A stretch of DNA of 55,954 nt from a virus (taxonomy: Duplodnaviria; Caudoviricetes), in the IMG/VR virus record IMGVR_UViG_3300032261_000007, positions 1 through 55,954 of that record; one strand, 5' to 3'. This document shows, piece by piece, positions 1,797 through 55,954 of the stretch. Every line of letters begins with the position of its first letter. Position 1 is the stretch's first letter. The translations under genes were made by a program, and so were the position numbers. Under the pieces are notes generated by a model. The model did not search any database, was not told the DNA's origin, and worked only from the letters and a program-made list of their open reading frames with translations.

Positions 1797-2461
1797 GCTT
1801 GCGGCACTTGCACGGTGAGAAGCGTAGCGTTGAACAACGAGGCATCGGAAATGCCGAACGCAATGGTCACAGCAGCGGGCACCTGCGGCATCATGTTGAC
1901 GACATGACCGTCCGCAATCGCGAGAATGTCCATGACATAAGCGCCGACCGGCACCGGCAATATCGCACCGGCTGGCACGTTGAAACCGAGCACGCCAGTC
2001 ACGCCGAAGTTAAGCATGGTCGAGTCGGCGGTCTGCGCGGTCAGAAAAATGCGTTCATCCGATATCGACTGCCGCAACGAGGCAATGAATGAGATACCGC
2101 TCAGATCGAGCGGTGCCGGATTAAACGTCAACGTCGCTTCCGGCGTCGAAGCCGTAGCCAAGATCGGACTGCCTGCCATACTGACACAGGTCAGCGTTGT
2201 CGTGCTTGGGATCGCGCCAACATAGCCGCCGCCGATCAATCCGGGCGTGGCCGATATTTGCATACCGGGCTGAATGCCCAAAGCACTCGGCACGCCGATC
2301 AAGTTGGAACTGGCCGTGAGAATACAGCCCTGCAGCGGGACCGGCGGGCCGAATCCCGGCTGGCTGAAATACATCGAGTCCAGCCAATCGCTGTTGTTCG
2401 GCACGAAGAACGACGTATTCGCGCCGTCGATCTTCGGCAGCGAGAGAATATTGGTTGCCAT
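1793..2461 (-). CDS. Tail/baseplate accessory protein
   Basis: 222 aa; PLDLSGISFIASLR...YVMDIL resembles BppU-like/adaptor domains; lies between fibre genes. Confidence 0.5.
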   Translation of the reverse strand: MATNILSLPKIDGANTSFFVPNNSDWLDSMYFSQPGFGPPVPLQGCILTASSNLIGVPSALGIQPGMQISATPGLIGGGYVGAIPSTTTLTCVSMAGSPILATASTPEATLTFNPAPLDLSGISFIASLRQSISDERIFLTAQTADSTMLNFGVTGVLGFNVPAGAILPVPVGAYVMDILAIADGHVVNMMPQVPAAVTIAFGISDASLFNATLLTVQVPQA

Positions 2462-4321
2462 CTAACAAATTCGCTTGACGACGCAAGTGCCGCTCAGAGT
2501 CGAGTTAGTGCCCCATGCGCCGCCACTCAACGGCTGACTGACGTCGATGGTGCCGAGTGACGTCCAAACCGTATTGTCCTGCCACGCCATGAAGCCAGCC
2601 GCCGGACCGCCCGCTAACGCGCTGTCGTATTTGATCGTCTTGGCAATCGTGTAAGTGGATATTGTCATGTGCATATAAAACGGCCCAATGTCGTTGAGCG
2701 TATCGGCTGGATTGCCCTGTGGTCCGTCAAACAAGTCAAACAAAAAGGCACCGGCTGGCGTGCCCCAATTGTTCGAGATTGGACTCTGATTCAGATAAGG
2801 CGGGTTGGGTATGATCGTCGGTCGCATATCCGAGTTGAGCACTTCCCATGTAACGATAACCGCGCCATAACTGGTGTTGTTTGCTTGCAAACGTAGGTCA
2901 GTGTTGCGCGAATTGCTGACTTGGACGTACAGCAACAGATCATAAAGACCCTGCACCGTCGCGATATGCAACGGCAGCGACGTTGCGTTAGTAAAGGTGA
3001 TGGTGATCTGATCGCCGACGGCCATTGCCATATCGCTCGCGGGTGGCGACGACAAATCGAAACTGTCGTATGGCCAGCGCGCATTGACCAACTGCCAATA
3101 GGTGCCGTCGTAGACAAAGAGGCAGATCACGCCAACGCGCAGATCACGCGGCTGCAAGGTCAGATTGTTGCGGCGAATAGTGGCTGGCGATGTGCCGTTG
3201 GCTTGCAGCGTAGCGCTGCCGGAATTGGTATAGGCGATCTGAACTTCGACGGTCAGCCCGGCGGCCAGCGACGTGATCGCGGGCGAGAACACGCCGTGCA
3301 CTGCGTTGATCGCGCCGGAATCGACCGCAAACGGAATGTTGATCGTATAGGTGTTATTGTTGGTCGTGGTCGAAGTGAAGCCGAAGAAGTTCAGCGTTTG
3401 CCACGCCGCGCCGTCCCACAACAGCGCCAGTATCTCGCCGGGATTGATGTCGCCCGAAGCCAGTTGCGCGCCGTTGGCGCGATGCACCGGCTGCGCGCCG
3501 AGACCGTTCAGATTGAACGTGACGTTGCCGGTGTTCTGAAAAGCGACGCGCACCAGCACGCCGGTCCCCGGCACCAATTGCGTGACCGGCGGATAGATCG
3601 TTGCCGCCATGGCGTTAAGCACGCCGTTATCGACGCAATAGGTCCACAGATTGGTCTGCACGTCGTTCGGCACCGACGGCAAGGTCGGGAAGAACGGCGC
3701 AAAGGTATTAAGAACGATATTCGCGCCAGTGATCGCGACCTGACCATTGACGACGGTGATGTAATACAACCCGGTGTAACCGGCATCCGGCGTTGGATTG
3801 ACTTGCGTCCCGGTCGGCGCTGGCGATCCGGCTTTGAGCGCAATCGTGCACTGCACTGACCGGATCGTGTATTGCGACATGCCGTCATTGCCGGGGCCGC
3901 TGTACGGCTGTGACGGGTTCGACGCATTGTAATAGGGCAGCACAGCGCTGCCGGTATCGACATCGGACAGGATTGCTTCGACCAAATAGACCTGACTGTA
4001 ACCGGGCGTGCTCGGCGGCGTGACCGTCAGCGTGACCGGATTAGCCAGAATGCCCTGCTTGACGATGTTGTGCGTGTCGGTGCCGAGATCGCTGTACGCG
4101 GTGGCATCGGTCATGTCCAACGTATAGATCGCACCATTGCCAACCACGACCTGCAGACTTGCGGGTACGGTGGGCGTGCACTGTAAATTATGCACTTCGG
4201 TGGTGGTGCCGAGAATGCCTTGCAACGCATAGCCAAGCCCGATCATCCCAAACTTGTTGGTGTTCAGAACGTCAGACGTCTGCGGCAGCGCCGCCGAATA
4301 GACGATGGCGCGATCTACCAT
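2462..4321 (-). CDS. Tail fibre protein (baseplate-proximal)
   Basis: Follows baseplate wedge genes; two tandem ~85-aa domains (YCVDNG..NTG..NGLG..WDG..WQ and FAVDSG..NSG..NGTS..YDG..WQ). Confidence 0.75.
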   Translation of the reverse strand: MVDRAIVYSAALPQTSDVLNTNKFGMIGLGYALQGILGTTTEVHNLQCTPTVPASLQVVVGNGAIYTLDMTDATAYSDLGTDTHNIVKQGILANPVTLTVTPPSTPGYSQVYLVEAILSDVDTGSAVLPYYNASNPSQPYSGPGNDGMSQYTIRSVQCTIALKAGSPAPTGTQVNPTPDAGYTGLYYITVVNGQVAITGANIVLNTFAPFFPTLPSVPNDVQTNLWTYCVDNGVLNAMAATIYPPVTQLVPGTGVLVRVAFQNTGNVTFNLNGLGAQPVHRANGAQLASGDINPGEILALLWDGAAWQTLNFFGFTSTTTNNNTYTINIPFAVDSGAINAVHGVFSPAITSLAAGLTVEVQIAYTNSGSATLQANGTSPATIRRNNLTLQPRDLRVGVICLFVYDGTYWQLVNARWPYDSFDLSSPPASDMAMAVGDQITITFTNATSLPLHIATVQGLYDLLLYVQVSNSRNTDLRLQANNTSYGAVIVTWEVLNSDMRPTIIPNPPYLNQSPISNNWGTPAGAFLFDLFDGPQGNPADTLNDIGPFYMHMTISTYTIAKTIKYDSALAGGPAAGFMAWQDNTVWTSLGTIDVSQPLSGGAWGTNSTLSGTCVVKRIC

Positions 4322-4336
4322 CTCAAAAATCCTCGT

Positions 4337-5164
4337 TTAAGGGCTTCGGTTCAGGTGGCGGCGCGGATTAAGCATTGTCGGAATGAATTTGCCGAGCCAA
4401 TGCGGGTTGGTTTCCAGCGCTTGGAATAGCGGCGTGGGCGGTCCTATCGATGCCAACAGCGCCGGTTGCGCGCCAAGCAACACTTCGGTGCCGATCTGTG
4501 TCCAGACAATCAGTCCGGTCGGCTTGTTGCGCACGATGGTATTGTAAATGTCCTGATCGGTGACGCCGATCTCGGGCGTCTCGGTGGCGATGTACTGGAT
4601 CGCACCAACACCGTAGCCGCCAAGCGTCGGTGTGCCACCCCAACCTTGGACATAGGGCACGCCGGTCGAGCGCAGCGCGGCGCGCGAGACCTTGAGAAAG
4701 ACCTGACCGGGAAGCTGGATCGAGCCCCAACCGCCCGCCCGGCCGTAAGCAAAATTGCCTTCGCCATAGCCGCCCGCATCGAACGGATTCCATGGCTCGA
4801 AAATAAACGGCGGCACGGTCAGCAACAGCGTCAACGCATTCATCATGCCCTTGCGCGTCACCCGTTCGGCAAGGATGGCGTTGGTGATCTGAATGCGGAA
4901 ATTAGTGTCGTCAGTGGTGCCGCCCGCACCGCGTAACAGCGTGCGGTTCAGAAAATCGTAGGCAATCAGATCGAGGAAAATGCCGCTAGCGGTGGCGATG
5001 CGACTTTGCTGGCGGATGAAAATCAGCCACTGGTACAGCCACGCCATGCTGTCGGCCAAGCCGCCGAGCACCGCGTCGCGCAGCGGTGCGCCCCACATAA
5101 ACCAGCGGCCGGGGATTAGCTGCCGGACCCGGTGGACGATGTCCTGTGAGTCGCCGGTCGCCAC
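4337..5164 (-). CDS. Baseplate wedge subunit (gpI-like position)
   Basis: Directly downstream of baseplate J; RIATASGIFLDLIAYDFL motif typical of wedge proteins. Confidence 0.65.
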   Translation of the reverse strand: MATGDSQDIVHRVRQLIPGRWFMWGAPLRDAVLGGLADSMAWLYQWLIFIRQQSRIATASGIFLDLIAYDFLNRTLLRGAGGTTDDTNFRIQITNAILAERVTRKGMMNALTLLLTVPPFIFEPWNPFDAGGYGEGNFAYGRAGGWGSIQLPGQVFLKVSRAALRSTGVPYVQGWGGTPTLGGYGVGAIQYIATETPEIGVTDQDIYNTIVRNKPTGLIVWTQIGTEVLLGAQPALLASIGPPTPLFQALETNPHWLGKFIPTMLNPRRHLNRSP

Positions 5165-5168
5165 GGCA

Positions 5169-6371
5169 TCAGTTCACTTCTGCGGTACGGCACTTGACCG
5201 TCGCATAGGCGATCGTGTTCTGGCCGTCCTGCGTCAGCCGCGATGTGGTGATTGACGCCATATCCGGCGTCTCGTCTAGAATTGGATGCCCGTTCAGCGT
5301 CACCGCAGTGACCTTGGTGACGCCCGCTTGCGAATAGGCGTAACCGGGCAGCATGGTGTATTCAAGATCATTGCCGAGCCCGAGCCCATCGATTTGCGTT
5401 GCGATATTAGCAGCGACCAAGGCAACCACATCGTTGTGCACGTAGGTCGCCGCAGTCGCAACATCCATCGCTACGCTGGCCCAAATGATCACGGGCGGGA
5501 ACACATCGAATTGCATGCCGAGCGGGCGCACCGCCTCACCGGCCGTGCGGATCGTCGCCAGAAAGCTTGGCGACGGATTACCACTGCCATCATCAGCAAT
5601 CACAAAGAAATAACCGGGCCGCCACGAGCCGTCGTAATTGTAACCCTCAGTCAAATTCCAAGTGACATTGGTCTCAGTACCCTCGATGGATGCCGCCAGC
5701 CCGTAATAATCGCCGCGCGCCAGCCCGAGAATGTAATCGCTGAACCGCTTCTTAAGCGCAGTATCGCTTTCAAAGTCGGTGCCGTTGGAATAGGCGCTGT
5801 TATTAACGACGGTATCGATGCCGGTCATCGTCGTCGCGATGATCGAGATCGCGCCCGCGGCGACATTCCCGGCCGACCCGGCCACGGTATTGACCACCGG
5901 CACGATCAGCGACGTGATCCACGGAGCCATGGTGTAGCCGGGCGGCGACGGCTGATAGGTCACATAGGTCGGATCGGCGGTCACCGTGAAGGTCTGTGAG
6001 CCGTCGTTGGTCAGCAGCGTCGCCCCAACCGGGACGAACAGCGCCGCCGGTCCCGCCGACAGCCGGGTGAAGGTAACCTGCCCGCTGGACGGCTGCGCCC
6101 CGAGCCGCGGCGATGTGGTGCCGGGCACCACCGGCATGAAGTCGGCCGTGAAGGTATCAACGTCATTGCCGGTCGATGTCGATAACCGGGTCGATGCCAG
6201 CAACGCCAGCATCATCGACTGAAACCACAGAAACACCGCGGCAAAGCCTTCGGCGATCGCCCGCAAGGTCGAGCCGATGGCGAAGTTAATCAGCTTTGCG
6301 GCACGGCCCTGAATCCCGGCGACTGTGTTCTCGACAATGGTCGCGAAGCTTTGTGTCGGCAACGTCGGCAT
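5169..6371 (-). CDS. Baseplate J/gp47 family protein
   Basis: GSTLRAIAE, GQVTFTR, GSAGNVAAGAI and GTDFESDTALKKRF motifs. Confidence 0.88.
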   Translation of the reverse strand: MPTLPTQSFATIVENTVAGIQGRAAKLINFAIGSTLRAIAEGFAAVFLWFQSMMLALLASTRLSTSTGNDVDTFTADFMPVVPGTTSPRLGAQPSSGQVTFTRLSAGPAALFVPVGATLLTNDGSQTFTVTADPTYVTYQPSPPGYTMAPWITSLIVPVVNTVAGSAGNVAAGAISIIATTMTGIDTVVNNSAYSNGTDFESDTALKKRFSDYILGLARGDYYGLAASIEGTETNVTWNLTEGYNYDGSWRPGYFFVIADDGSGNPSPSFLATIRTAGEAVRPLGMQFDVFPPVIIWASVAMDVATAATYVHNDVVALVAANIATQIDGLGLGNDLEYTMLPGYAYSQAGVTKVTAVTLNGHPILDETPDMASITTSRLTQDGQNTIAYATVKCRTAEVN

Positions 6372-6377
6372 GACGGC

Positions 6378-6746
6378 TCATGACGTAATGGTGAAGGATA
6401 CGGCAACGCCGGTCGCGGCATCCCAATAGTGGATGCCGATGCCGACGCTGTCGGGTTGGTTCGGCGAAGCGGCGACATTCAGTTGCGCAGGTGGGAACGG
6501 TGCCACCGCCGCTTCCAGCGCAAGTTGCGCAGCGCAGATCGCCTTGATGTCGTAGACCTGCCACGGATCGCCGATCTTTTGCGGCAGCCCGGCTCCGTAT
6601 TCGGGATGCCAGACATAGCCTTGCACCGCGGTGAACAGCCGCCGTTCCAGCCGCTGGCGCACTTCGTCGTCGCCATCGACCGTCAATAGATCGCCGGTCG
6701 AATCGGCTTGGAAGTCGGTGTGCCACTCGCACCAAATGTCAGGCAT
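6378..6746 (-). CDS. Baseplate wedge protein (gpW/gp25/gp46-like)
   Basis: GDLLTVDG..QRLERRLFT..YVWHPEYGAGL; sits between spike and J. Confidence 0.75.
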   Translation of the reverse strand: MPDIWCEWHTDFQADSTGDLLTVDGDDEVRQRLERRLFTAVQGYVWHPEYGAGLPQKIGDPWQVYDIKAICAAQLALEAAVAPFPPAQLNVAASPNQPDSVGIGIHYWDAATGVAVSFTITS

Positions 6747-6748
6747 GA

Positions 6749-7426
6749 TCAGTCATCAATATCACCTTCGACCGTCAGCCATGGCCACGTGGTGTTCTGC
6801 GCGTTGGTTGACCATGTCTTCGAGACATTGTCGGTGCGCTGGCCCTTGATCTGCACGGTGCGGTCTTTCTGGATAGTATCGGTCTTGTTGCGGCCAACCT
6901 GCGCGACTTGATCAGTGTCGGTCTGCGTGGTGATGGTGCCCTTGTTGTCGAGCGTCACCGTCACCTTCTTGGCATTCTTGGTCTGGTCTTGCTGGCCCTT
7001 CATCGGCGTGGTCTTGACGCCGGTTTTGAGCGTCAGCGAACCGTCCTTGTTGAAGCGGACCTGCTGCCCCCACTTCGTCCACATCACCATCTCGCCGGAC
7101 TCGACCCGCGGCGGCTTGTCCTCGTCGCTGTGCAGCCGCTGCACGATCTTGCCCGACTCGAAGTCATTCTCCTGATAGCGGACGATGACCTGATCGCCGG
7201 TCTCCTTGCCGTCGCCGGTTTCCAAGCCGACAGCAATGCCGTAGCCGTTGCCGTTATGGCCTTCCTCGATCGGCAGCCAATCGGTCTCAACGTCATCCGG
7301 TTTGAGCATGACCTTGGCGAGATGCGTATCCGGGTCGTAGCTGGTGACCAGCCCGTGGCGTTCGGAATAGCGCGCTGCCGCCCATCGCTCGATGCAACGA
7401 AAGATCACGTTCTCTAGCGTGTCCAT
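6749..7426 (-). CDS. Baseplate central spike (gpV-like)
   Basis: OB-fold signature GLVTSYDP..AKV..ETDWLP..GDQVIV, then a beta-strand C-terminus; start moved to MDTLEN at 7426. Confidence 0.78.
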   Translation of the reverse strand: MDTLENVIFRCIERWAAARYSERHGLVTSYDPDTHLAKVMLKPDDVETDWLPIEEGHNGNGYGIAVGLETGDGKETGDQVIVRYQENDFESGKIVQRLHSDEDKPPRVESGEMVMWTKWGQQVRFNKDGSLTLKTGVKTTPMKGQQDQTKNAKKVTVTLDNKGTITTQTDTDQVAQVGRNKTDTIQKDRTVQIKGQRTDNVSKTWSTNAQNTTWPWLTVEGDIDD

Positions 7427-7430
7427 TGTC

Positions 7431-8468
7431 TCACCATAACTCGGGTGCGCCGCCGCCACCGCCGCCGCCGCCGCCGGTCGAAGCCGTGATCGCCATGCGA
7501 TAGCCGGTCATGCCAAAATCATGATCGACTTGATCGATCGTGTAGCTGTCGTCGAAGCAGGTAGTACCGCTCAACGTCAGCCCTTGATGCACGTCGATAT
7601 TGACGTCGCCGACGCATTCGGCACGCACTTCACGCTGGTGCCGGTCGTGCTCGTGCGCCCGCGCCTGCGCCCACTGATCGGCCTGTTCCTGCTCCAAATG
7701 CTGGATGCGCTGGTGATAGGTGATGCCGCCGCTTGAGCCAAAGCTAGAATTTCCGGTGATTAGCTTTTTCTTCTTCGGATGCCATGACGGGACTTTGACC
7801 TGACCGCCCCGAGCAGCTTGCACGTTGATAATGACCTGCAGGTCGAGCGCGTCGGAAACGTCGTAAGGCGGCCCCATTTTCCAAAACACCGAATAGCCGC
7901 CGCCGGTCTGATCTTGAATCTGATAGATCAACGTGCCGAACCGATCGACAAAGAACCGCGCGCCGTCGTACTGCGCCAGCAGATGAATCACCGTGGCATA
8001 GCTGATGCCGTCCGTCAGCTTGACGAAGTCGTCCTTGATCTTCTTGCCCGCCATCAGCTTGCTAGCTTCGGCCTGACAGGGAATGCCGCAGCGTCCGGCC
8101 AGCGTCTGCGTGATTTGCGAGCCTTTCTGGTTCTTGAAGGTCTCCGAGCTTTTCTGCTCGTGCAGCTTGTAGCCGACGTCCTGCCCCCACAGATTGATGA
8201 TGCCGCCAAGATAATTGTAGGTGACTTTCAGGACCGAACCGGTGATCAATACGCCAGTGCCGGACACGTTCTGCGCCCATACTTCGGTGCTGTTCTCGGT
8301 GAGATCGCAGAAGGCGTGATAAGCGCCCGGATAGTTCATCGGGATATTGACGTTGAAGCTCGACTGCCCGCGGGTGGCGACCTGATGCACCGCGCCGTGC
8401 TCGATCGGCCAAGTCCCGTTGCAGCTTATCCACGCCCGATGCGGCGCAACTCCAAAGGAGATCGCCAC
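7431..8468 (-). CDS. Baseplate hub / late control D-like protein
   Basis: 345 aa between the LysM-like gene and the spike; C-terminal YTIDQVDHDFGMTGYRMAITA. Confidence 0.72.
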   Translation of the reverse strand: MAISFGVAPHRAWISCNGTWPIEHGAVHQVATRGQSSFNVNIPMNYPGAYHAFCDLTENSTEVWAQNVSGTGVLITGSVLKVTYNYLGGIINLWGQDVGYKLHEQKSSETFKNQKGSQITQTLAGRCGIPCQAEASKLMAGKKIKDDFVKLTDGISYATVIHLLAQYDGARFFVDRFGTLIYQIQDQTGGGYSVFWKMGPPYDVSDALDLQVIINVQAARGGQVKVPSWHPKKKKLITGNSSFGSSGGITYHQRIQHLEQEQADQWAQARAHEHDRHQREVRAECVGDVNIDVHQGLTLSGTTCFDDSYTIDQVDHDFGMTGYRMAITASTGGGGGGGGGAPELW

Positions 8469-12940: not shown

Positions 12941-14806
12941 CTAGTCCCTTTGACTGCCTGCGGTACGAACGCCGAGAATGTCGAAGATGCGATCGCCCCA
13001 AATCTCGGTCTGCGATCTCGGCCGCTGCCATACACCGGGTGCGGTTTCCCGCGACTTGTCTGATGGCGCAGTGGCCGCCGGAATAATATTGGTCGGATAA
13101 TTCGGATTGCGCCGGATGTTCGGAATGCCGCCGAGCTTGGTGATCGCATTCCACATCGCCGAATCGGTCGGCGTCGGGATGACGCGATCGTCGGTCGGCC
13201 TGACCGACGCATCGGCAGGCGTCGCGATCTGCTGATTGGTATCCTCAGTGGTCGGCAGCCCGGTCGTTTCCGTCGGCGTGCCAATATCGACATGCGGCCC
13301 CTTGCGGCCGAGATAAGCAGTGGCAACGGCGTGCCGCGCCTCGCGTTCTTCCGGCGTTTCGTTGGCGACCGCGCCACCGCGCCGTTCGGCCTCAACCTGA
13401 CGCTGTTGCTCGACCCGATACGATCGCGCGTGCGGCGTGCCGGGATGATCACCGTAGACTTCGCCGCTCTGCCGGTTGACGACATACTGGCCGGACCGCA
13501 CTTCTTCCGAGAAGTTAGGATCGCCGCGGCTGCCTTGGTCGGTGAAGCCTCTGACCAGATTGCTGCCCGCCAGCGCCTTGTCCATCTCGTGGTAGTCGTT
13601 GCCGTAGCGATCGACTTGGTTGCGCAGATAGGATTCGTTGATCTCGCCGCGCTGGACCGGACCGTAAAACTGGCCGTATTTGCCTTTCAGATAATCACTC
13701 AGCGTAATGTCGGGATGCGTGCGCCGCAGCGCGTTCAAGCGATTGAACAGCGACTCGGCGACTTCCGTGCGCTTGCCCGCGGATTCTTCGTGGGTCAGCA
13801 CGCCCGCCAGAAAGCGCTTCAGCCGCGGATTGGCGTCAAGCTCGTCCTTGATCCATCTGCGCTCGTTGCGCAGATACGCACTCGACGGTCCGCGATCGGG
13901 CTCATTGCTGGTCATCGAGCCAACCGGAGTCTCGGCGTCGGTATCTGGACCGCCCGGATGGCCGACTTCACGCGGCAGCAGCGGCGGCATCTTTGACGCT
14001 TCTTCGGCGATATTGCCGTAAGCGGTCGGTCCCGGACTCTCCTGCATGTGCATCAAGTCGTATTGGCCGCCGCTGTGGAAATAGCCGCCCCATGAGAACG
14101 GCATTTTGTCGGCGCGCGATTGCCGCGCCACATCAAGCGCAAACTCGTGGTAAGCGGCAAACTCGTGGGTGCCGGGGCCTAGCCCGATATTGCGCAGCCA
14201 GCCGACGCCGGGCTCGTAAAGCTGCATGTCGAGCGCGCGGCCTTGCCGGTGCAGCGATGTCGGCCGCCCATGGGTCGGCGAATAGCCCGACGTAATCTTC
14301 CACTTCCAGCCCGGGTGCTTGGCCATGAACTCGTTGGCACCCTTCTTGACGTTCTCGACCAGCCGCGGATCGACGCCGCGAAGCTGCACTTCGGATTCCG
14401 GCGGTGCATCCTTGGCTTGCTTCGGTGCCGCTTCTCCACTCGGGCTACCCGGCAAGCCTTTGACGCCCGCCATGCTGTCGGGGCCGTAATAGCCGCGACG
14501 GCCCGGACCCTTCGGCGGTAAGCGTTCTTCGGGACGAATACGGTCCTTGGTGTCGTCGGGGCGGGGCCGTGCCCGCGGGCCGATATGCGGCCGGAACAGC
14601 GGTCCGGTGCCGCGCGACGGCCGACCAAATCCGCGCGGCCCCATCGGTTCGCTGCCGGGATGGCCGCCGCCGGGGAAGCCGGGCAGCGGTGCCATATGCT
14701 CGTCGGGCATGACCGCGAACTCGTCGGCACTGGCATCCTCGTCGATGTCAATGTCGATGTCGCCGACCTTCTTTTGGTCGAGCAGAATCACGCCAGCCTT
14801 GGTCAT
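12941..14806 (-). CDS. Virion-associated peptidoglycan hydrolase (M15-type peptidase plus SleB/Hydrolase_2-like domain)
   Basis: LRGVDPRL..ITSGY..SLHRQGRALD..WGG..DLMHMQ (M15 Zn motifs); HEE..EVAESLFNR..GQFY (SleB-like). Confidence 0.65.
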   Translation of the reverse strand: MTKAGVILLDQKKVGDIDIDIDEDASADEFAVMPDEHMAPLPGFPGGGHPGSEPMGPRGFGRPSRGTGPLFRPHIGPRARPRPDDTKDRIRPEERLPPKGPGRRGYYGPDSMAGVKGLPGSPSGEAAPKQAKDAPPESEVQLRGVDPRLVENVKKGANEFMAKHPGWKWKITSGYSPTHGRPTSLHRQGRALDMQLYEPGVGWLRNIGLGPGTHEFAAYHEFALDVARQSRADKMPFSWGGYFHSGGQYDLMHMQESPGPTAYGNIAEEASKMPPLLPREVGHPGGPDTDAETPVGSMTSNEPDRGPSSAYLRNERRWIKDELDANPRLKRFLAGVLTHEESAGKRTEVAESLFNRLNALRRTHPDITLSDYLKGKYGQFYGPVQRGEINESYLRNQVDRYGNDYHEMDKALAGSNLVRGFTDQGSRGDPNFSEEVRSGQYVVNRQSGEVYGDHPGTPHARSYRVEQQRQVEAERRGGAVANETPEEREARHAVATAYLGRKGPHVDIGTPTETTGLPTTEDTNQQIATPADASVRPTDDRVIPTPTDSAMWNAITKLGGIPNIRRNPNYPTNIIPAATAPSDKSRETAPGVWQRPRSQTEIWGDRIFDILGVRTAGSQRD

Positions 14807-42195: not shown

Positions 42196-42681
42196 TCACG
42201 CGGCGATCGCTAGACTCCCGGCTGCAAACTCGACCCGGGTCAGTTGCCCAAGAATCGAGACAAACGCAACCTCGCGGTCGCGGGTGGTCATTCGGTCGAA
42301 CGTGCCAATCAGCCCGCTGAGCGGTCCTTGCTTGACGCGCACACGCTGGCCTTGGCGGAAGCCTCTACGGATAGTGATGACGCCGTCGCGATCTTCACGC
42401 GCCTTGATCTCGCCGATCACTGCGTCATGCAATAGCGCGGGCCGATCATCCTGCACAAAAACGGCATCGACGCCGCAGGTGGTACGGATCAGATACCAAA
42501 CCGGAACGAACAGAACAAAAAAGTAACGACCAAACAAATAACTCTCGACCATCTGCTTATGGCCGCGGAAGAACCTGCGTTCACGGAATCTCGGGAAGTA
42601 TGTTTCGAAACCGCGATCCTCAAGGAAGGTGCGGGCTACAGCTTGCTTGCCGTTTTCTGATGTCGCAACCAGCCACGGCAT
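42196..42681 (-). CDS. NusG/RfaH-family transcription elongation factor
   Basis: NGN: W.V..L..RGFE.YFP..LF.RYFFV..I..T.GV; KOW: F..GQRVRVKQGPLSG..G. Confidence 0.85.
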   Translation of the reverse strand: MPWLVATSENGKQAVARTFLEDRGFETYFPRFRERRFFRGHKQMVESYLFGRYFFVLFVPVWYLIRTTCGVDAVFVQDDRPALLHDAVIGEIKAREDRDGVITIRRGFRQGQRVRVKQGPLSGLIGTFDRMTTRDREVAFVSILGQLTRVEFAAGSLAIAA

Positions 42682-45459: not shown

Positions 45460-45491
45460 AAAAAAGCGCCCCGGCATTTCACCGGGGCGTT
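45460..45491 (-). terminator. Intrinsic terminator
   Basis: Minus strand CGCCCCGG-TGAAATG-CCGGGGCG then CTTTTTT. Confidence 0.7.
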
Positions 45492-45530
45492 GGGGAGTTG
45501 GCGTGGTTGCGTGCAATCACGGACTGCAGG

Positions 45531-49221: not shown

Positions 49222-49560
49222 AGGTGCAGGTCGGCAGTACCGGGGCGGATGCCCCTCGTGGCCGGTTCCCGGGACCCCTTCTTCCTGCTTCTCCACGGCG
49301 CGCGAAGAGCGGCCGTCACCAGTTCCGCCAGTCGGGCGGGGCGAGAAGGTTCCGGGCGGGATCAAGCCCCATTGAGCCACGGAATCATTGCGGTCTGCCC
49401 GCTGTAACGACGGCCGAGTCGGCCAAGCCACTGAAGACTCTTTCTTTGTGTGCACTTCGGTGCTCGCAAAGAAAGGGTCGTAACCTTTGCGGCGGGACAG
49501 CTTCGAGCCCGCCGTTCATTGGGCGGGTTACTCCCGCCCCGCGATTTCCAGTCTGAACCT
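49222..49560 (+). ncRNA. Structured ~340-nt leader or ncRNA of unknown family
   Basis: Ends pair (AGGTGCAG/CTGAACCT); nested helices; UUCG-capped long hairpin; no SD-led ORF. Confidence 0.55.
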
Positions 49561-49586
49561 TCTTCACCCAACCAACGGAGTCCTGA

Positions 49587-49823
49587 ATGTCTGCCTTCAA
49601 ATCGCATCTGAAGTCGATCGCCAAAGCCGTTTCTTGGCGGTTCGTCGGCGCGCTCGACAGCTTCGCGATTGCCTATCTCGTCACCGGCCATGCCGGTGCC
49701 GCGGCGGGCTTCGTCGGCTTCGAGATCGCCACCAAGAGCCTCTGGTACTACTTGCACGAGCGCGCTTGGGAGCATCCCGTCCTGGTGAAAGCGTTCGGCA
49801 AAGCGCCGAACGCTGCTCACTAA
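49587..49823 (+). CDS. DUF2061-like small membrane protein
   Basis: SIAKAVSWR..D....Y..TG..E..TK..YY.HER.W. Confidence 0.8.
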   Translation: MSAFKSHLKSIAKAVSWRFVGALDSFAIAYLVTGHAGAAAGFVGFEIATKSLWYYLHERAWEHPVLVKAFGKAPNAAH

Positions 49824-49854
49824 TCCCCACCATCAACCAACAGGGAGTCAAGCA

Positions 49855-49938
49855 ATGCTTGCTTTCTTGAAGTGGGTGTTCACGACCGACGAAGTAGTTC
49901 CTTCGCCGGTCTTCGCCGAGATCATGTCGGCGAAGTGA
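49855..49938 (+). CDS. 27-aa peptide
   Basis: GGGAG SD; MLAFLKWVFTTDEVVPSPVFAEIMSAK. Confidence 0.45.
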   Translation: MLAFLKWVFTTDEVVPSPVFAEIMSAK

Positions 49939-49983
49939 TCACTAAGGGCGGCCTTCGGGCCGCCTCATAGTGTTCACAGTTTT

Positions 49984-50825
49984 TGCCGATCGAGCGTGCG
50001 CACGCTGTGTGACGGTCGGCTACGTTCTTGCTTCGCCTTGGGTGGGTCAAGGCTACAGCGACCGGCAGAGAAAAACATCTGAGTACGAGTCGCAGAGCGG
50101 AGTGGAAATCTCCGCACAGTTCGAACGGCGCACGGTCGCCGTAAGCGTGAAGCCTATAGGGCAGGATGCCTTGGGCTGGTGATCGCATCCGTGACGCCGC
50201 GCGGGCGGCGACAGCGTCGGCCGACGCACCCGCATCAATTCGGGGCGTTAGTGCAGCGGCCAAGCACGTCGGTCCCTCAAACCGAAAACGCCGGGTTCGA
50301 GTCCCGCACGCCCTACCAAAACGACGAGCGTGGTCCGTACCGGCAAGTGAAAGACCTTGCCACGGAGTACTCAGCGCAAGCTGCGAAGCCACGACCGGCC
50401 CGCCAATGGCTTGAGGGCGGGCACCTTAAATCATCTGCACCACGTAAGAGTCCGGCCCAAAAGAGCCGCTAACAAACGAGTATCGGCTAAGCGCCGACGG
50501 CGGGGATAAGCTGGCACGTAGCGTGGCAGGCGCGAGCCTAACGACCACTGTTGCGGTGCAGATAAAGACGCAAGCGTTCGTTCGAGCAGCGAGCCCGGTC
50601 ACCGCGAACCCAAAGCGGCCCGGGCGGCAGACCCGGCTTTTGCCTGCAGGAAACCCACTGCCGAACGACGCGGAGCTTGCGGGGAACCACCGGCCGATCG
50701 GAATTGCCCAACGGGCCAAACGGGATCGGCGGTTGGTTTCGGCGGGGCGTTCCGGCCTATGGCCGTGCGGTCAAACCGCAGCCTTGCACGCTGGCGTCGC
50801 GTGCAACGCCCCACCGATACCAACC
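49984..50825 (+). ncRNA. Large ornate structured RNA candidate (GOLLD-like or novel) containing a tRNA
   Basis: About 840 nt with no credible gene; many hairpins and GNRA loops; long-range pairings. Confidence 0.6.
50242..50318 (+). tRNA. tRNA-Glu(CUC), atypical
   Basis: Acceptor GGGGCGT/ACGCCCT, D arm GTGC/GCAC, anticodon stem TCGGT/ACCGA with loop CC-CTC-AA, GTTCGAG T loop, encoded CCA. Confidence 0.8.
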
Positions 50826-50842
50826 AACCACAGGAGTCTTCG

Positions 50843-51187
50843 ATGACCACCCGAAAGGACAAGCGCCGGGCTCGTTTCACCCGTGGTGCGCCGTTGTTTA
50901 AGTGCAACGTCTGCCACCGGCTGACCCGCAACCCGGACCACAGCGGCACGATGCTGTGTGCCGAGTGCTATGAGCTTGCCGGGCTCGACAACTACGTGAA
51001 CGACAACGGCATGGTGCTCGACGCCAAGATCGTCGCCGAGCGCGATGCGCTGTTCGCTGACGCGGTCAAGCACGGCGGCGACGGCGAGCGCATCAAGAAG
51101 TGCTGCGACTATCTCTGGCCCGACGAGGATCAATTCGCGATCCCCGCCGACCTTTCTATTCCCGCGTTCCTGAAGCGGGCAGCCTGA
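50843..51187 (+). CDS. Zn-finger early protein
   Basis: AGGAG SD; CNVC...CAEC. Confidence 0.65.
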   Translation: MTTRKDKRRARFTRGAPLFKCNVCHRLTRNPDHSGTMLCAECYELAGLDNYVNDNGMVLDAKIVAERDALFADAVKHGGDGERIKKCCDYLWPDEDQFAIPADLSIPAFLKRAA

Positions 51188-51199
51188 AGGAGCCAAATC

Positions 51200-51364
51200 A
51201 TGACACCGCAATACTGGTACTGCGAGGATTGCGATCAGGTCTACCGACCCTTGTGGGCCGATGACCGATCGTTGCCGCGGGCACCGCGCGATCTGCGCTG
51301 CTCGGACTGCGGCAAGAAACTAACGCCCTATCAGTATCCCAAATACGAAGGAGCCAAGCCATGA
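51200..51364 (+). CDS. Zn-ribbon peptide (54 aa)
   Basis: GAAGGAG SD; CEDC...CSDC. Confidence 0.55.
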   Translation: MTPQYWYCEDCDQVYRPLWADDRSLPRAPRDLRCSDCGKKLTPYQYPKYEGAKP

Positions 51365-51516
51365 ACGTCAACGATCTGGCGCGCTGGATCGTGGAGCACG
51401 GTGCCGACAAACCGGCCGAGCAGCCGGAAGTCGGCACCCCGCTTTATCTGCCGGTGCCCGAGTACATTCCAACCCCAACCAAAAAGGAGATCGATTATGA
51501 AATCGACTATGCCTGA
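51361..51516 (+). CDS. Small hypothetical protein (51 aa)
   Basis: GAAGGAG SD; ATGA overlap with the upstream stop. Confidence 0.5.
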   Translation: MNVNDLARWIVEHGADKPAEQPEVGTPLYLPVPEYIPTPTKKEIDYEIDYA

Positions 51517-51544
51517 TGCCTTCTTCCGTAGCAAGGAGACGACC

Positions 51545-51766
51545 ATGATTAGGTGTCAATGGACAACAGAGCGTGTCGACTGTACCGGCTCAAAGTATGG
51601 CCTTTATAGCAGAGGCGGCGGCCAATGCAGCCGACGGGCAACCTACACAGACGGCAAGAATTTTGTGTGTACGCAACACGCCAAAGAGCCTGCCACTGTT
51701 CTGCGAATGGCTACCGGCAAGATCAAAGAGGGATTTATCAAAATCCCGCTAGGAGACGATGAATAA
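51545..51766 (+). CDS. Small Cys/His protein
   Basis: AAGGAG SD; C..QCSR..C.QH. Confidence 0.55.
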   Translation: MIRCQWTTERVDCTGSKYGLYSRGGGQCSRRATYTDGKNFVCTQHAKEPATVLRMATGKIKEGFIKIPLGDDE

Positions 51767-51841
51767 TTGTTCTGAGCACCCGGTCGTGCGTGACGAAGTC
51801 CGCAAGATCGTAACTGAAACCCAAACCGAAGGAGCCAAGTC

Positions 51842-52015
51842 ATGACCACCTTTAGAAAGATCACTGAGTGGGCGTTGCAGTCCGATACTGAACTGACAGA
51901 GGGCGACTTGGTCACCGTCAACTTGAAGAGCGGTGCGACCAAGCAAGTCAAGGTCGGTGATTTCATCCGATCGGGATACGGCAAGTTCCTGTATCACGTC
52001 GCGGATGACGAGTGA
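51842..52015 (+). CDS. Small beta-barrel-like protein (57 aa)
   Basis: GAAGGAG SD; GDLVTV..KSG..K.V.V. Confidence 0.6.
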   Translation: MTTFRKITEWALQSDTELTEGDLVTVNLKSGATKQVKVGDFIRSGYGKFLYHVADDE

Positions 52016-52063
52016 ACCGCAAGAGCTTGGCAGCGCCGCAGCGCTGCCTTGCCGTGCGATTCA
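52013..52063 (+). repeat. Stop-codon-anchored stem-loop element, copy 1
   Basis: TGAACCGCA-AG-AGC..GGCAGCGC/GCGCTGCC-TTGC-CG-TGCGATTCA. Confidence 0.75.
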
Positions 52064-52080
52064 AACCGAAGGAGCCAACT

Positions 52081-52395
52081 ATGCGTAAACTCTTAATCGC
52101 AATCGCCGCAGCGCTAGCGCTGGCAATGATGCCGACGCCGACGCAGGCAGCCACTTTAGACATCCCATACGCGATCGCAGCTAATATCCTGTACGACCGC
52201 TACTGCGAAGCGCTGCCGCAGGACGTGCTGCGCGATACCTACCTGACCGCTTCGATCATGCAGCCGGAAGAATTAGAGCGCGGCGAGCGCGACGCCCACG
52301 CCGTAATGGCGCGAGTCGGCCCGACCGCTTTCTGCGCGGGCATCAAGACTGGCAATGACCCACGCCTTGGCAATAACCTGCCAGATTTATGGTGA
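52081..52395 (+). CDS. Secreted small protein
   Basis: Signal peptide MRKLLIAIAAALALA..TQA. Confidence 0.65.
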   Translation: MRKLLIAIAAALALAMMPTPTQAATLDIPYAIAANILYDRYCEALPQDVLRDTYLTASIMQPEELERGERDAHAVMARVGPTAFCAGIKTGNDPRLGNNLPDLW

Positions 52396-52444
52396 ACCGT
52401 AGCAGCTTTGCCGCCCCATGCGGGCGGCATTGCGGTGCGATTCA
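52393..52444 (+). repeat. Stop-codon-anchored stem-loop element, copy 2
   Basis: TGAACCGTA-GC-AGC..TGCCGCCC/GGGCGGCA-TTGC-GG-TGCGATTCA. Confidence 0.75.
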
Positions 52445-52543
52445 TACACGGACAAGGCTCTGGCGGGTCAGGACTAAAAAACCGAATCCCGGTGGGTAGC
52501 GCGTGGTGATGTGGATCGCACCACCCTCACCGAAGGAGCCATC

Positions 52544-52780
52544 ATGCAAACCGCAATCCGACGCGGCACCGTCGTCTATGACGTGGCCGATCCCCGGCAT
52601 CATGGGATCGTCCGCACGCTGCACCTGTGCCACGGCAAATTCTTTGCCAACGTGCAGTGGATCGAAACCGGCTGGCTTTCCTACCGCTTACCCGTCGCCG
52701 ACTTGCGACGGGTCGCGGCCGAAGACGCCACCCTAACCGAGTGCGACCTGATGCGTCGCGCACTGAAGGAGCCAAAATGA
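52544..52780 (+). CDS. Small SH3-like hypothetical protein
   Basis: GAAGGAG SD; G.VV..PRH.G.V..ANVQW. Confidence 0.6.
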   Translation: MQTAIRRGTVVYDVADPRHHGIVRTLHLCHGKFFANVQWIETGWLSYRLPVADLRRVAAEDATLTECDLMRRALKEPK

Positions 52781-52992
52781 AAACCATGACACGCGCTGGA
52801 AAGCGTGCCGCCAAGATCGCCGACAAGCGCATCGAACGCGCCTATAACGCCACCTGTCCCGGCATCATGATCGACATCATGAACATCGGCAAAATCTTTG
52901 CCTATGGCCGAACGCAGATCGCGCAGGGCGTTGACGACGCCGCGCTGGCGTTGGCGATCCACGCCTATGTTCAAACCATCCGCGAAAACTGA
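52777..52992 (+). CDS. Hypothetical protein
   Basis: GAAGGAG SD; ATGA overlap. Confidence 0.6.
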   Translation: MKTMTRAGKRAAKIADKRIERAYNATCPGIMIDIMNIGKIFAYGRTQIAQGVDDAALALAIHAYVQTIREN

Positions 52993-53005
52993 AGGAGCCC
53001 GCACC

Positions 53006-53302
53006 ATGACAAACGTCGTATGGGGCACGGCCTTCTTCGTCAGCAAGGCCGCGGCCATCACCTACTATCGACCGTATCACTACGAAGACGTGGTCGAAGC
53101 CGTGAACCGCAAGCTCGCCGAAGGCGAGATTCACATCGGTCCGCCACCGCTCGAACCGGGCGAGTCGCTGGTCATTATCGATCAAGGCACGCGCTATGCC
53201 ATCCGCGAGTCCGACAAGCAATCGGCCGATCGGCGACAAGCCGAGCACGATGCCAGCCGGATCGCTAGTGATAACGATGACAGCCGGTTCGGCGACTACT
53301 GA
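53006..53302 (+). CDS. Hypothetical protein
   Basis: GAAGGAG SD before MTNVVWG. Confidence 0.6.
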   Translation: MTNVVWGTAFFVSKAAAITYYRPYHYEDVVEAVNRKLAEGEIHIGPPPLEPGESLVIIDQGTRYAIRESDKQSADRRQAEHDASRIASDNDDSRFGDY

Positions 53303-53352
53303 ACCACAGCAGCGATGGCCACGCCAGCGGCGTGGCGTTGCGGTGTGATTCA
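53300..53352 (+). repeat. Stop-codon-anchored stem-loop element, copy 3
   Basis: TGAACCACA-GC-AGC..GCCACGCC/GGCGTGGC-GTTGC-GG-TGTGATTCA. Confidence 0.75.
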
Positions 53353-53368
53353 AACGAAAGGAGCCAAC

Positions 53369-53596
53369 ATGAAATATGTCAGCATCAATTCGCACGTCAT
53401 CCGTTCCAATGCCGTGCACGGCACCGACGAGCCGCCGATCCGCGTGGCTTGCAGCCGCCTCGATCCCAAGCCCACCTATGCCCGCGAGTTAAAAATCGTC
53501 GGCCCGGCGCGGCTTGTCTACGATCCGCGCGAACGAATCATGCGCTGCGGCGCACGTCTGGTGCTTGAGTGCGCCGACGTCGAGATCACCCGCTAA
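53369..53596 (+). CDS. Conserved phage hypothetical protein
   Basis: N.H.IR.N...GTDEPPI..GP..LVY..CGAR pattern; AAGGAG SD. Confidence 0.65.
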   Translation: MKYVSINSHVIRSNAVHGTDEPPIRVACSRLDPKPTYARELKIVGPARLVYDPRERIMRCGARLVLECADVEITR

Positions 53597-53614
53597 CCAG
53601 AAAGGAGCCAAACC

Positions 53615-54208
53615 ATGACCGACCTACCGATCGAGCGCATAGCCCGTGTCATCAAGCACAGCGGCTATGACATCACCGTGACCGACGAGTACCGCTTCAA
53701 GATCAGCGGTCCTGACTACGACAAAGATGAATATCCGGCGGACACGCTGAGCGCAGCCAAGCGGAAGATCGACGACCACATCAAGACCCTGCACAAGCAG
53801 CAACAGATTCGAAAGCGATTGAACCTGAAGCTGCGCAACCGTGCCGGCGTGTTGGTCACCATGCGGGGCTTCCACGCCAAGAACGGCAACATGCTGAGCA
53901 CGCCCGACGTGCCGCGGTACACCGACGTCTATCCCGATGTGCCTTGGATCGTCGAAGCGCTGGCTAAGCGTGCCGAGCTTAACACCGCGATGAATAAGAT
54001 CGACGGTGAGTTGCGACCGTTCGGCTTGAAGTCCAACCAGTACGGTCACCGCGACGCCGACGCCTACGAGCGCGAGCTAAACAAATGGCTCGACGAGCTT
54101 AAGGTCAAGACGGCCGCGGCCATCAAACGGGTGCAAGACGCAATACCGGCGCGTGGCAATCTCGCGGCAGATACCCGGATAACAAACCCTAACCAGCAGG
54201 GCATCTGA
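53615..54208 (+). CDS. Hypothetical protein
   Basis: 197 aa; AAGGAG SD. Confidence 0.65.
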   Translation: MTDLPIERIARVIKHSGYDITVTDEYRFKISGPDYDKDEYPADTLSAAKRKIDDHIKTLHKQQQIRKRLNLKLRNRAGVLVTMRGFHAKNGNMLSTPDVPRYTDVYPDVPWIVEALAKRAELNTAMNKIDGELRPFGLKSNQYGHRDADAYERELNKWLDELKVKTAAAIKRVQDAIPARGNLAADTRITNPNQQGI

Positions 54209-54266
54209 TCACCTCCCCTTCAGTGGCTTGGCCCGCTCGACCACCAAGCCTGAAAGGAGTCTAACC

Positions 54267-54479
54267 ATGGGACTGTATGTAGTTCACCTAATCCAAGCAG
54301 CGTACCGGCAGCGGCCCGACAAGCCGCCGCTCAAGGTGCTTTATAATGGCGACGATCGCGCTGCCGCGCTCGACGCCGTTACGGCTGCGCATGAACGCCC
54401 GGAAAATACCGGATTGTACGTGCGCTTTTACGACTTCCATATGTTCGGCGGCGGCATGAAAGACACGGCAATCACATGA
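54267..54479 (+). CDS. Hypothetical protein
   Basis: AAGGAG SD before MGLYVV. Confidence 0.55.
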   Translation: MGLYVVHLIQAAYRQRPDKPPLKVLYNGDDRAAALDAVTAAHERPENTGLYVRFYDFHMFGGGMKDTAIT

Positions 54480-54730
54480 GAACGATCAAAGCCGTGATCC
54501 TGCTCGCCCTGCTGCTGTTGCACCCGCTGCCAGCCTACGGCGGCGACCTGTACCGTATCGGACCCGGGCCGCCCTACGGCTACGGCTATTCCGGCCCCGG
54601 CAGCTATACCAACGTGCCCGACCCAAGCTGGCCGGACCTGCACGCCATCCAACAGCGAGACCGCTATGACACCCGGCCGCCTGCGCCTGCTCCTGACCGA
54701 GCACGGGCTGAACCAGACCGAAGCCGCTAG
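54476..54730 (+). CDS. Small secreted Pro/Gly/Tyr-rich protein
   Basis: Signal peptide; ATGA overlap. Confidence 0.45.
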   Translation: MRTIKAVILLALLLLHPLPAYGGDLYRIGPGPPYGYGYSGPGSYTNVPDPSWPDLHAIQQRDRYDTRPPAPAPDRARAEPDRSR

Positions 54731-54881
54731 GCTGTGCGGCGTCGAGCCCCGGACCGTGCGGCGCTGGCTGGCCGGTGACCGGCCGATCCCGCACTGGATC
54801 GATCGGCTGTTCTGGCTGATCGATCTGGCTAGATCAAAGAAGGCGACCGACGCCCGGCAGATGCTCAAGACCCTCGAATAA
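54666..54881 (+). CDS. XRE/Cro-type HTH regulator
   Basis: GLNQTEAARLCGVEPRTVRRWLAG..PIP. Confidence 0.8.
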   Translation: MTPGRLRLLLTEHGLNQTEAARLCGVEPRTVRRWLAGDRPIPHWIDRLFWLIDLARSKKATDARQMLKTLE

Positions 54882-54927
54882 AAAGCCGCCCGGCTGGCCT
54901 TGCAAACCTAACGACCGGGCGGCTCTT
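54880..54927. terminator. Stem-loop at the strand convergence (probable terminator for minus-strand genes)
   Basis: AAAAAGCCGCCCGG-N21-CCGGGCGGCT. Confidence 0.5.
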
Positions 54928-55003
54928 CCAACAAACCGAAGGAGCCAATCCTACAGATTGTCATGAAGACCCGGACTATAGCCCGACGCTTCCGCCCGCA
55001 CCA

Positions 55004-55396
55004 TCATGATTCGTTCTCTTTCTCGATTCGTTCCCGCCGCTTGGCCGCGGCAAAAGCCGCGTTCTGCAGATTGATCCAGTGCATCAGCGGAGCAACCACC
55101 ACCTGCGGCACAGCCTTCGATTCACCGTTCGGCCAACACCCATAGATCGCCTTGAACTTGGCGCTGGCATAGCCGGGCTTGTAACCCTTCTGCTCCGCGT
55201 ACCACGCCAACCGGGCGAAGGTCAGCGTGCGGGCATCGTGTTCGGGTATGCCGTCAAAGTCCGCGGTCGCCATCCACCATTTGAGCTTGCGCTGGACCCG
55301 GACCGCAAACGCCCCGCAGTTGGAGCAGCGCAGTCGGCCGCGCGGGCGCTTCTCAATCGTCCGTCTCCGACCGCACGACGCGCAGGTGACCAACAT
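55004..55396 (-). CDS. Zn-ribbon protein with a phage-helicase C-terminal-like domain
   Basis: CASC..CSNC; YA..KGYKPG.A..KFK..YG.WP. Confidence 0.55.
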   Translation of the reverse strand: MLVTCASCGRRRTIEKRPRGRLRCSNCGAFAVRVQRKLKWWMATADFDGIPEHDARTLTFARLAWYAEQKGYKPGYASAKFKAIYGCWPNGESKAVPQVVVAPLMHWINLQNAAFAAAKRRERIEKENES

Positions 55397-55583
55397 TGAC
55401 CGGCTCTTTCCGACGTGCGACCGCCCCTCGATAGTCCCGAGCGATCGCTTCCAAGACTTGGATGTGGTGGAACGAGGCTTCGACCTTGAAGGCTTTCACG
55501 CCGTGACTGTCGTTCTGCCACCACTGCCGCAGCGCAAGCTCGTGCTCGATCGCTGCTAGCTTGTCTTCAAAGCTGAAGCTCAT
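55353..55583 (-). CDS. Hypothetical protein
   Basis: GAGGA before MSFSFEDK. Confidence 0.55.
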   Translation of the reverse strand: MSFSFEDKLAAIEHELALRQWWQNDSHGVKAFKVEASFHHIQVLEAIARDYRGAVARRKEPVNVGHLRVVRSETDD

Positions 55584-55749
55584 GCTGATCCTCGACCTGC
55601 GCTTGCGCTTCTTCCTCACGCACGACCCGGCACAATTCGGTCTGCAGGATGGCGACGTTCTTGCGGTCTCCCGGGCTGCGCTCGTGCCCGAACGTCTTCA
55701 ATGCCAGCGCCAGATTGCGCGCCACGGTAGCGACTTGCTGATCACTCAT
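55567..55749 (-). CDS. Hypothetical protein
   Basis: AAGGAG SD before MSDQQ. Confidence 0.55.
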   Translation of the reverse strand: MSDQQVATVARNLALALKTFGHERSPGDRKNVAILQTELCRVVREEEAQAQVEDQHELQL

Positions 55750-55954
55750 TTGACCGGCTCCTTGGTTGGTTGCATGCTTATCCGGTTGTTACCCACTATT
55801 CCTCCTGTGCATGGCCAAATCCCCCAAGACGCTGTCTCGGCCTTTTCTTCAACGGGTCGCGCCGTTTTTCATCAGGGTGTCGGCGAGATGTTCTTGGGCC
55901 TCTATAATCATGCCCGCCTCAATTAGTGCGATTGCTTTCTTGATCGCATCCCGC

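Follow-up and report, generated by a model that had tools for sequence, protein, structure and literature searches.

What function is served by three related hairpins that each begin at the stop codon of a small gene in an uncultured soil phage? The question is raised by the IMG/VR virus record IMGVR_UViG_3300032261_000007 (linear, 55,954 bp, 61% GC), the whole of which was analysed and is called the window below. An earlier note, made from the letters alone, had placed stem-loops at 52013, 52393 and 53300, each starting at the TGA stop of the upstream gene; the consensus pattern of these elements has exactly three matches in the window, all on the + strand, and the stops of the open reading frames (ORFs) at which they begin are confirmed. 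These hairpins form a family that is real, selected, previously uncatalogued and narrow in distribution. The role that we favour, with a chance that we put a little short of even and by analogy with phage T7, is that of RNase III-type processing and stabilising signals in a polycistronic mRNA. The three elements are as follows (nt, nucleotides; aa, amino acids):

w1: 52013 to 52063, + strand, a 51-nt hairpin whose TGA is the stop of a 57-aa gene and which ends 5 nt 5' of the AAGGAG of the next gene.
w2: 52393 to 52444, + strand, a 52-nt hairpin whose TGA is the stop of a 104-aa gene and which is followed by a spacer of ~100 nt.
w3: 53300 to 53352, + strand, a 53-nt hairpin whose TGA is the stop of a 98-aa gene and which ends 5 nt 5' of the AAGGAG of the next gene.

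The consensus pattern has no match in any of 100 dinucleotide shuffles, so that no copy is expected by chance. Moreover, a covariance model built from five copies (R1) retrieves w1, w2 and w3 and nothing else from the window, at 73 to 79 bits. Folded with their flanks, w1, w2 and w3 each form a single hairpin (-30.0, -32.0 and -30.9 kcal/mol, with z-scores of -4.9, -3.7 and -4.2, respectively), and the bare elements fold at -24.5 to -29.9 kcal/mol. The base of the hairpin is made of UGAA paired with UUCA, 4 bp that include the stop codon, and is followed by an invariant C·A mismatch and then by a covarying stem of 4 bp. From there towards the tip, the centre comprises an R·G mismatch, one covarying pair, an invariant bulged A, GC paired with GC and a small U-rich internal loop, and the apex is a freely covarying GC-rich stem of 7 to 8 bp with a variable loop. 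Together, the 18 to 22 pairs and the mismatches amount to ~23 stacked layers, or two helical turns, with the bulged A, the R·G mismatch and the U-rich loop lying 9 to 13 layers from either end.

The pairing was examined in nine copies (eight of them distinct) from the window, a related phage locus (L009) and a metagenome fragment (L074). In this alignment, which is fitted to the R1 model and favours the structure somewhat, standard pairs fill 98.7% of the 150 pair cells and both sides have changed in 7 of the 19 pairs; no column shuffle out of 500 reaches the observed pairing or covariation values, and a control in which the partner was slid by one to three columns leaves only 22 to 52.5% of the cells paired. 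All eight distinct rows have the C·A mismatch and the bulged A, and the R·G mismatch and the U-rich 2x2 loop are nearly invariant. The outer stem had been described in the earlier note as covarying and the inner hairpin as changing completely while still pairing, and both descriptions hold. Its further description of a fixed mismatch and a fixed AGC/TTGC internal loop needs adjustment: the C·A mismatch is invariant, whereas AGC/TTGC is only nearly fixed (AGT/ATGC in one copy) and its GC/GC part is paired rather than looped in the model.

Orthologous copies illustrate how the structure is maintained. For example, in r2, the counterpart of w1 in the related phage, an A-U pair of the lower stem is missing, both of its bases having been deleted, and a G-C pair of the upper stem has become U-A. 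Among paralogues, the apical stem and loop are wholly different, indicating that the paralogues are old. The pairing is thus under selection throughout, and base identity is kept at the irregular centre only. The free variation of the apical stem and loop, as opposed to the invariance of the irregular nucleotides, suggests that the centre of the stem, and not the loop, is recognised. No conserved alternative (bistable) fold was found across the copies; where alternatives without the lower and middle stems occur, they are 2.5 to 7.3 kcal/mol worse and vary from copy to copy. When the first 14 nt are held single-stranded, as they would be under a terminating ribosome, the apical hairpin alone persists.

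The family was searched for in phages with the covariance model, as the earlier note had proposed, and in wider collections with sequence patterns. A relaxed pattern scan of the IMG/VR viral contigs gave 24 loci, of which a single one, L009, is real. It lies in a contig of 50,745 bp from a 70-77% identical phage (G001) whose DUF932 protein is 76% identical to that of the window and whose DNA is 68 to 88% identical in patches, and the whole G001 record carries exactly three copies (r1, r2 and r3), in the sense orientation of the same module of small genes. Among the 27 loci obtained from metagenome contigs only two are real: L078 shares 98% identity with the window, and L074 nearly duplicates G001, with an additional base in one of the elements. 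The pattern also has 33 matches in bacteria and archaea, of which 185,579 species were scanned with one genome each, but none of these folds as the element. Similarly, R1 gave no hit better than E = 2.4 on 79 more distant phage loci bearing DUF932 (1.31 Mb), and a blastn search of phages for more family members gave no match. A core-only pattern applied to the viral contigs (14 loci) retrieved one other hairpin besides L009, in L177, which was rejected as a promoter-like palindrome next to TGTATAAT; it scores 19.8 bits on R1, through its apical part only. DUF932 proteins 69 to 77% identical to that of the window exist on short contigs. A match to an already described motif was the objection foreseen in the earlier note. 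No Rfam family matches the elements: the gathering threshold gives a tRNA match only, and at E<=5 over 49800-53500 nothing falls on them. No description of the motif was found in the full-text literature either, which is not proof of absence.

The genomic context places the elements in what would be one transcriptional unit. From position 1 to ~49,800 the genes lie mostly on the minus strand, in a block that encodes the large terminase, a portal protein, an XkdF-like protease, a baseplate wedge protein, a NusG-like protein and the DUF932 protein. The baseplate wedge protein indicates a myovirus-like phage; an RNA polymerase of its own is not known for it. The block is followed by a one-directional module of the + strand (49,855 to ~54,880, 5 kb) with ~15 small ORFs, nearly all of which are preceded by a strong AAGGAG(C/T)C Shine-Dalgarno (SD) site. 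Their junctions are minimal or overlapping, for example cTGAaggagcc. All copies of the element are in the sense orientation of this one-directional module, which counts in favour of an RNA role as a processing signal. The features around the three hairpins are the following:

51842 to 52015, + strand, the 57-aa gene upstream of w1, with its own SD site, conserved in G001.
52081 to 52395, + strand, the 104-aa signal-peptide-like gene between w1 and w2, with its own SD site, in place of which G001 has two unrelated genes.
52445 to 52543, + strand, the spacer of ~98-100 nt after w2, partly conserved in G001.
53006 to 53302, + strand, the 98-aa gene upstream of w3, with its own SD site.
53369 to 53596, + strand, the 75-aa gene downstream of w3, assigned to phrog_8676, of unknown function.

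An A/C-rich motif (CAAACC or similar) is present just 5' of AAGGAG(C/T)C at most translation starts, both in the window (49855-54480, + strand) and in the module of G001. The last + strand ORF of the module (54666-54881, 71 aa) looks helix-turn-helix-like by eye, and minus-strand genes resume thereafter.

Under the processing reading, the module would be transcribed as one message and the elements would act in cis as RNA hairpins in its sense transcript. Host RNase III, or a similar double-strand-specific endonuclease, would cut at the irregular centre; the upstream cistron would then end in the stable apical hairpin, a block to 3' exonucleases, and the downstream cistron would begin with a short unstructured CAAACC-AAGGAG leader. 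No RNase III domain is encoded in the window or in the G001 record, so that the enzyme would have to be that of the host. The closest parallel is provided by the early region of T7, whose intergenic gaps were folded from the GenBank record; we take these gaps to be RNase III sites, and the T7 signals to be those named R0.3, R0.5, R1, R1.1 and R1.3 (R1 being here a T7 site and not our model). The T7 0.4/0.5 gap forms a 52-nt two-stem hairpin in which the UGA stop is paired in the lower stem, with an SD site and AUG just after, the hairpin of the 0.7/1 gap begins 1 nt after the UGA, and a further hairpin lies in the leader before gene 0.3. The T7 early signals thus resemble w1 to w3 in being a family of hairpins of ~50 nt in which an irregular centre separates an upper from a lower stem, and which are located between small genes of one (in the window, presumed) operon, start at or in the upstream UGA and are followed by an SD site and AUG; as in G001, one copy is in the leader. 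They differ in that the T7 centre is one larger asymmetric loop, whereas here it is made of a bulged A, 1x1 mismatches and a 2x2 loop, and the phage type also differs from T7, the window phage being myovirus-like. One review (PMC3867540) gives 22 bp for an idealised RNase III substrate, states that loops, bulges or mismatches at the target site lead to single-strand cuts and that the 3' hairpins left by such cuts are stability determinants for the upstream RNA, and counts five processing signals in the T7 early precursor of ~7000 nt.

Several observations weigh against this reading. The earlier note had suggested RNase III-type sites as in T7, and anatomy and layout do fit these best, but no sequence homology was found: run with filters off on T7 400-8200, R1 gives at best 9.6 bits (E = 0.79), and the T7 comparison is therefore one of analogy and not of homology. 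Neither strand of the elements folds appreciably better than the other, whether as RNA or as DNA; on the other strand, the invariant C·A becomes G·U and the five G·U cells of the + strand become A·C. The sense strand and the type of molecule are consequently assigned from context only. Furthermore, the element is carried at just three of the ~14 junctions of the module, and only two phage records and two short fragments are known to contain the family. The nearest cultured terminases, from phages of alphaproteobacteria and cyanobacteria, are less than 50% identical. None of the listed runs containing the stretch is on record as RNA. A specific RNA-binding protein would account just as well for the invariance of the bulged and mismatched bases. 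Finally, the lower stem could be partly a by-product of the CAAACC motif. Indeed, the UGAA on the 5' side of the element contains the stop codon and the UUCA on its 3' side overlaps the CAAACC motif that precedes the SD site, which, together with the compactness of the junctions, indicates that anchoring at the stop comes in part from tight packing.

The copy r1 of G001 bears directly on this last point. It is located in the operon leader, before the first gene and without any credible ORF ending at its TGA, and it has nevertheless kept the UGAA/UUCA pairing, so that the lower stem belongs to the element itself. Two translational roles for the stop codon were considered and rejected. Readthrough or selenocysteine insertion finds no support, as the frames after the TGA are unconserved in length and sequence and nothing falls on the elements in Rfam at E<=5, and for translational bypass there are no matched take-off and landing codons.

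The leader position of r1 and the invariance of the irregular nucleotides beside freely covarying stems would also be expected of an operator for a specific phage or host RNA-binding protein, in line with the protein-binding RNA motif put forward as a second possibility in the earlier note. Such a protein would recognise the bulged A, the mismatches and the U-rich loop, and would control translation of the next gene or antitermination through the module. We regard this as unlikely, though far from negligible. The distance of w1 and w3 from the SD site is compatible with it, but w2 lies ~100 nt from the next one. The phage encodes a NusG-like protein, but its gene is in the opposite-strand block, upstream of the terminase gene; no candidate binding protein has been identified, the module proteins being without known family, and the loops are unconserved, unlike those of boxB-type sites. 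The lambda nut boxB and HK022 put sites are antitermination RNAs. They share with the present elements a low copy number per phage, their presence in early transcripts and, with regard to the relative, a promoter-proximal copy, whereas here the loops are unconserved, a boxA-like partner is lacking and the hairpin is considerably longer. The NusG-like protein itself (42196-42681, minus strand, 161 aa) matches the NusG N-terminal domain PF02357 at 30 bits for a cut-off of 22.2. Its gene is on the same strand as the large terminase gene, and the protein may act as the phage's own factor for processivity or antitermination along the extensive minus-strand block.

The thermodynamic stability of the bare elements and their intercistronic position are also consistent with a passive role, as uncut mRNA stabilisers that block 3'-5' exonucleases or as weak attenuators at which RNA polymerase pauses or partly stops, in either case setting different levels for the upstream and downstream genes. 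The persistence of the apical hairpin when the first 14 nt are open would suit such a role as well. We nevertheless judge it unlikely, because a generic barrier needs neither invariant mismatches nor a bulge. An attenuator is further disfavoured by the lack of a U-tract: the three hairpins are not among the 15 terminator-like sites, their 3' flank being AUUCAAAC, although the window does have, at ~45460-45500 on the minus strand, a GC-rich hairpin followed by a T6 run that looks like a canonical intrinsic terminator.

Nor do the elements adjoin a promoter. The only promoter-like site in 49300-55954, in a scan that covers the sigma-70-like type, is on the minus strand (53202-53174) and next to none of them. 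An identity with terminators or with the promoter-early stem-loops (PeSLs) of T4-like phages was rejected on these two grounds. According to PMC2839356 and PMC4122927, PeSLs consist of a sigma-70-like promoter and a terminator stem-loop; like the present elements, they are short intergenic repeats among small variable genes, and insertions, deletions or replacements occur there between close relatives. However, there are many PeSLs per genome, whereas the window has three elements, with no promoter-like site and no U-tract.

A feature of the junctions that carry w1 and w2 is that they coincide with the limits of gene exchange. The window and G001 are homologous across the 57-aa gene, w1 and the SD site, lose this homology just after the next ATG and regain it exactly at the TGA of w2; in between, the window has the single 104-aa gene and G001 has two unrelated genes of 94 and 67 aa. 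The expectation of the earlier note that gene content changes at the elements is thus supported in the one pairwise comparison, window against G001. In addition, in a contig from a soil run, 52005 is connected to 52393 through 7 other letters, w1 and the 104-aa gene being absent (depth 3, shorter side of 29 letters), and contigs from two runs have, instead of the ~98-nt spacer after w2, 26 letters carrying an SD site and an ATG, so that this spacer looks like an optional insert. As these contigs were placed at 80% likeness, a setting prone to joints from other organisms or repeats, they lend weak support to gene exchange at the junctions; a further joint-like row in the soil contigs, from 53265 to 53421 with 29 other letters, was not used. 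Finally, one junction of G001 (L028, reverse strand, before the gene at 1582) reads TGAACC-TCAAACC-AACAGGAG, that is, the flanks of the element without its hairpin core, and could represent an empty site or a deletion scar.

These data raise the alternative that the role of the elements lies mainly at the DNA level, with single-gene cassettes being exchanged by homologous or illegitimate recombination at the stop-hairpin-SD linkers, in the manner of the PeSLs of T4-like phages. The start and stop codons at which homology ends and resumes around w1 and w2, the soil-run contig from 52005 to 52393 and the coreless TGAACC|TCAAACC junction all point in this direction. However, other module breakpoints are found at plain junctions without a hairpin, where the shared SD context may suffice, and compensatory changes reveal selection on pairing, which recombination does not require. 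Moreover, the comparison concerns one genome pair, and the soil-run joint is a single contig with the depth, short side and likeness given above. We consider a mainly recombinational role quite unlikely, whereas a secondary one, coexisting with a role in RNA, is plausible. A bolder combination of the two, to which we grant a small but appreciable chance, would make the linkers portable modules with a dual job, RNA punctuation and capping on the one hand, and on the other DNA repeats for the exact exchange of ORFs from start to stop without any integrase. If true, this would provide soil phages with a cassette system for their small accessory genes that needs no recombinase.

The imperfect palindrome with its extrahelical bases and its presence or absence from junction to junction also recall selfish miniature palindromic inserts (REP- or MITE-like) or attC-like recombinase sites, the latter having been put forward in the earlier note as folded DNA bounding single-gene cassettes. 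Either origin appears very improbable. A selfish insert is difficult to reconcile with the lack of any true match among the 33 found in the 185,579 bacterial and archaeal species, with the presence of only three copies per phage and with old paralogues whose apical stems are entirely different. Bacterial REP and BIME elements are likewise stable, imperfect intercistronic palindromes and can protect upstream mRNA, but the present elements are in no scanned bacterial genome, number three copies and consist of old and divergent paralogues. With integron attC sites the elements share an imperfect palindrome, conserved unpaired bases, a variable centre and a position at the 3' end of single genes. 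They differ from them by the absence of R''/R' ends and of an integrase, by their occurrence at three of ~14 junctions and by the SD site that each downstream gene has of its own. Five of the six copies contain neither of the attC core motifs, R'' (RYYYAAC) and R' (GTTRRRY), on either strand, and r3 has internal or flank matches only, so that none of the six carries a core motif at its ends. The tyrosine recombinase domain PF00589 (Phage_integrase) was found in neither of the two phage records, which are 81% (window, CheckV estimate) and 74% (G001) complete, and in 14 of 14 control genomes. The attC suggestion is therefore not retained.

Other stop-anchored hairpins are present in the window and in one distant locus:

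49936 to 49976, + strand, window: a separate two-tier hairpin anchored at the stop of a 27-aa ORF (-28.9 kcal/mol, z = -6.1), unscored by R1.
5 to 49 and 660 to 704, + strand, and 8340 to 8383 and 14041 to 14084, minus strand (in reverse-strand coordinates), L105: a repeated hairpin.

The first of these had been called a looser relative of the family. It is a genuine stop-anchored hairpin, and in G001 its stop is kept paired through a double change (TGA/TCA to TAA/TTA), but it is not a fourth copy. The 27-aa ORF (49855-49938, + strand, MLAFLKW..., conserved as MLAFFKW... in G001) opens the module, and a T5 run is present in the window 3 nt downstream of the hairpin; together, this ORF and its hairpin may be a leader peptide with its attenuator. 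The second belongs to one of the 79 distant DUF932-bearing phage loci, L105, which has its own repeated hairpin of 44 to 45 nt starting with TAG. A generic scan for families of stop-anchored hairpins in these loci was too noisy, and a further repeated hairpin was found in L105 only.

Some additional features of the region were observed. A tRNA-Glu(CUC) is encoded in the window at 50242-50318 (+ strand). No tRNA is detected by ARAGORN at the corresponding locus of the relative (L009, ~3060-3020, minus strand), where a T-arm-like stretch, GGTTCGATTCCCGC, persists. Downstream of the tRNA, the non-coding sequence 50434-50566 (+ strand) is the best-conserved part of the region, with 88% identity to G001 against 68 to 80% in the other aligned blocks; Rfam gives no match for it, and it folds with a z-score of only -2.1. 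In the fragment L078, 28 nt corresponding to 53210-53237 of the window, inside the 98-aa gene, are missing, which would shift the reading frame. As for the distribution of the phage itself, 20 of the 23 listed sequencing runs, from 19 studies and all of soil metagenomes, hold at least half of the sampled words of the stretch.

The practical value of the elements is modest, and consists in a better annotation of operons and junctions in viral metagenomes and in a possible insulator part for synthetic operons. Their invariant irregular bases (the bulged A, the C·A and the R·G) offer a clean substrate for testing recognition by an RNase III other than that of E. coli or by another factor. The exact match between mosaic breakpoints and the start and stop codons on either side of the linkers offers a concrete model, open to testing, of the exchange of single small genes in the accessory regions of phages. 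If the hairpins are indeed processing signals, they would represent a T7-style punctuation of a polycistronic message in an unrelated, uncultured, myovirus-like phage of soil, achieved with a different hairpin design.

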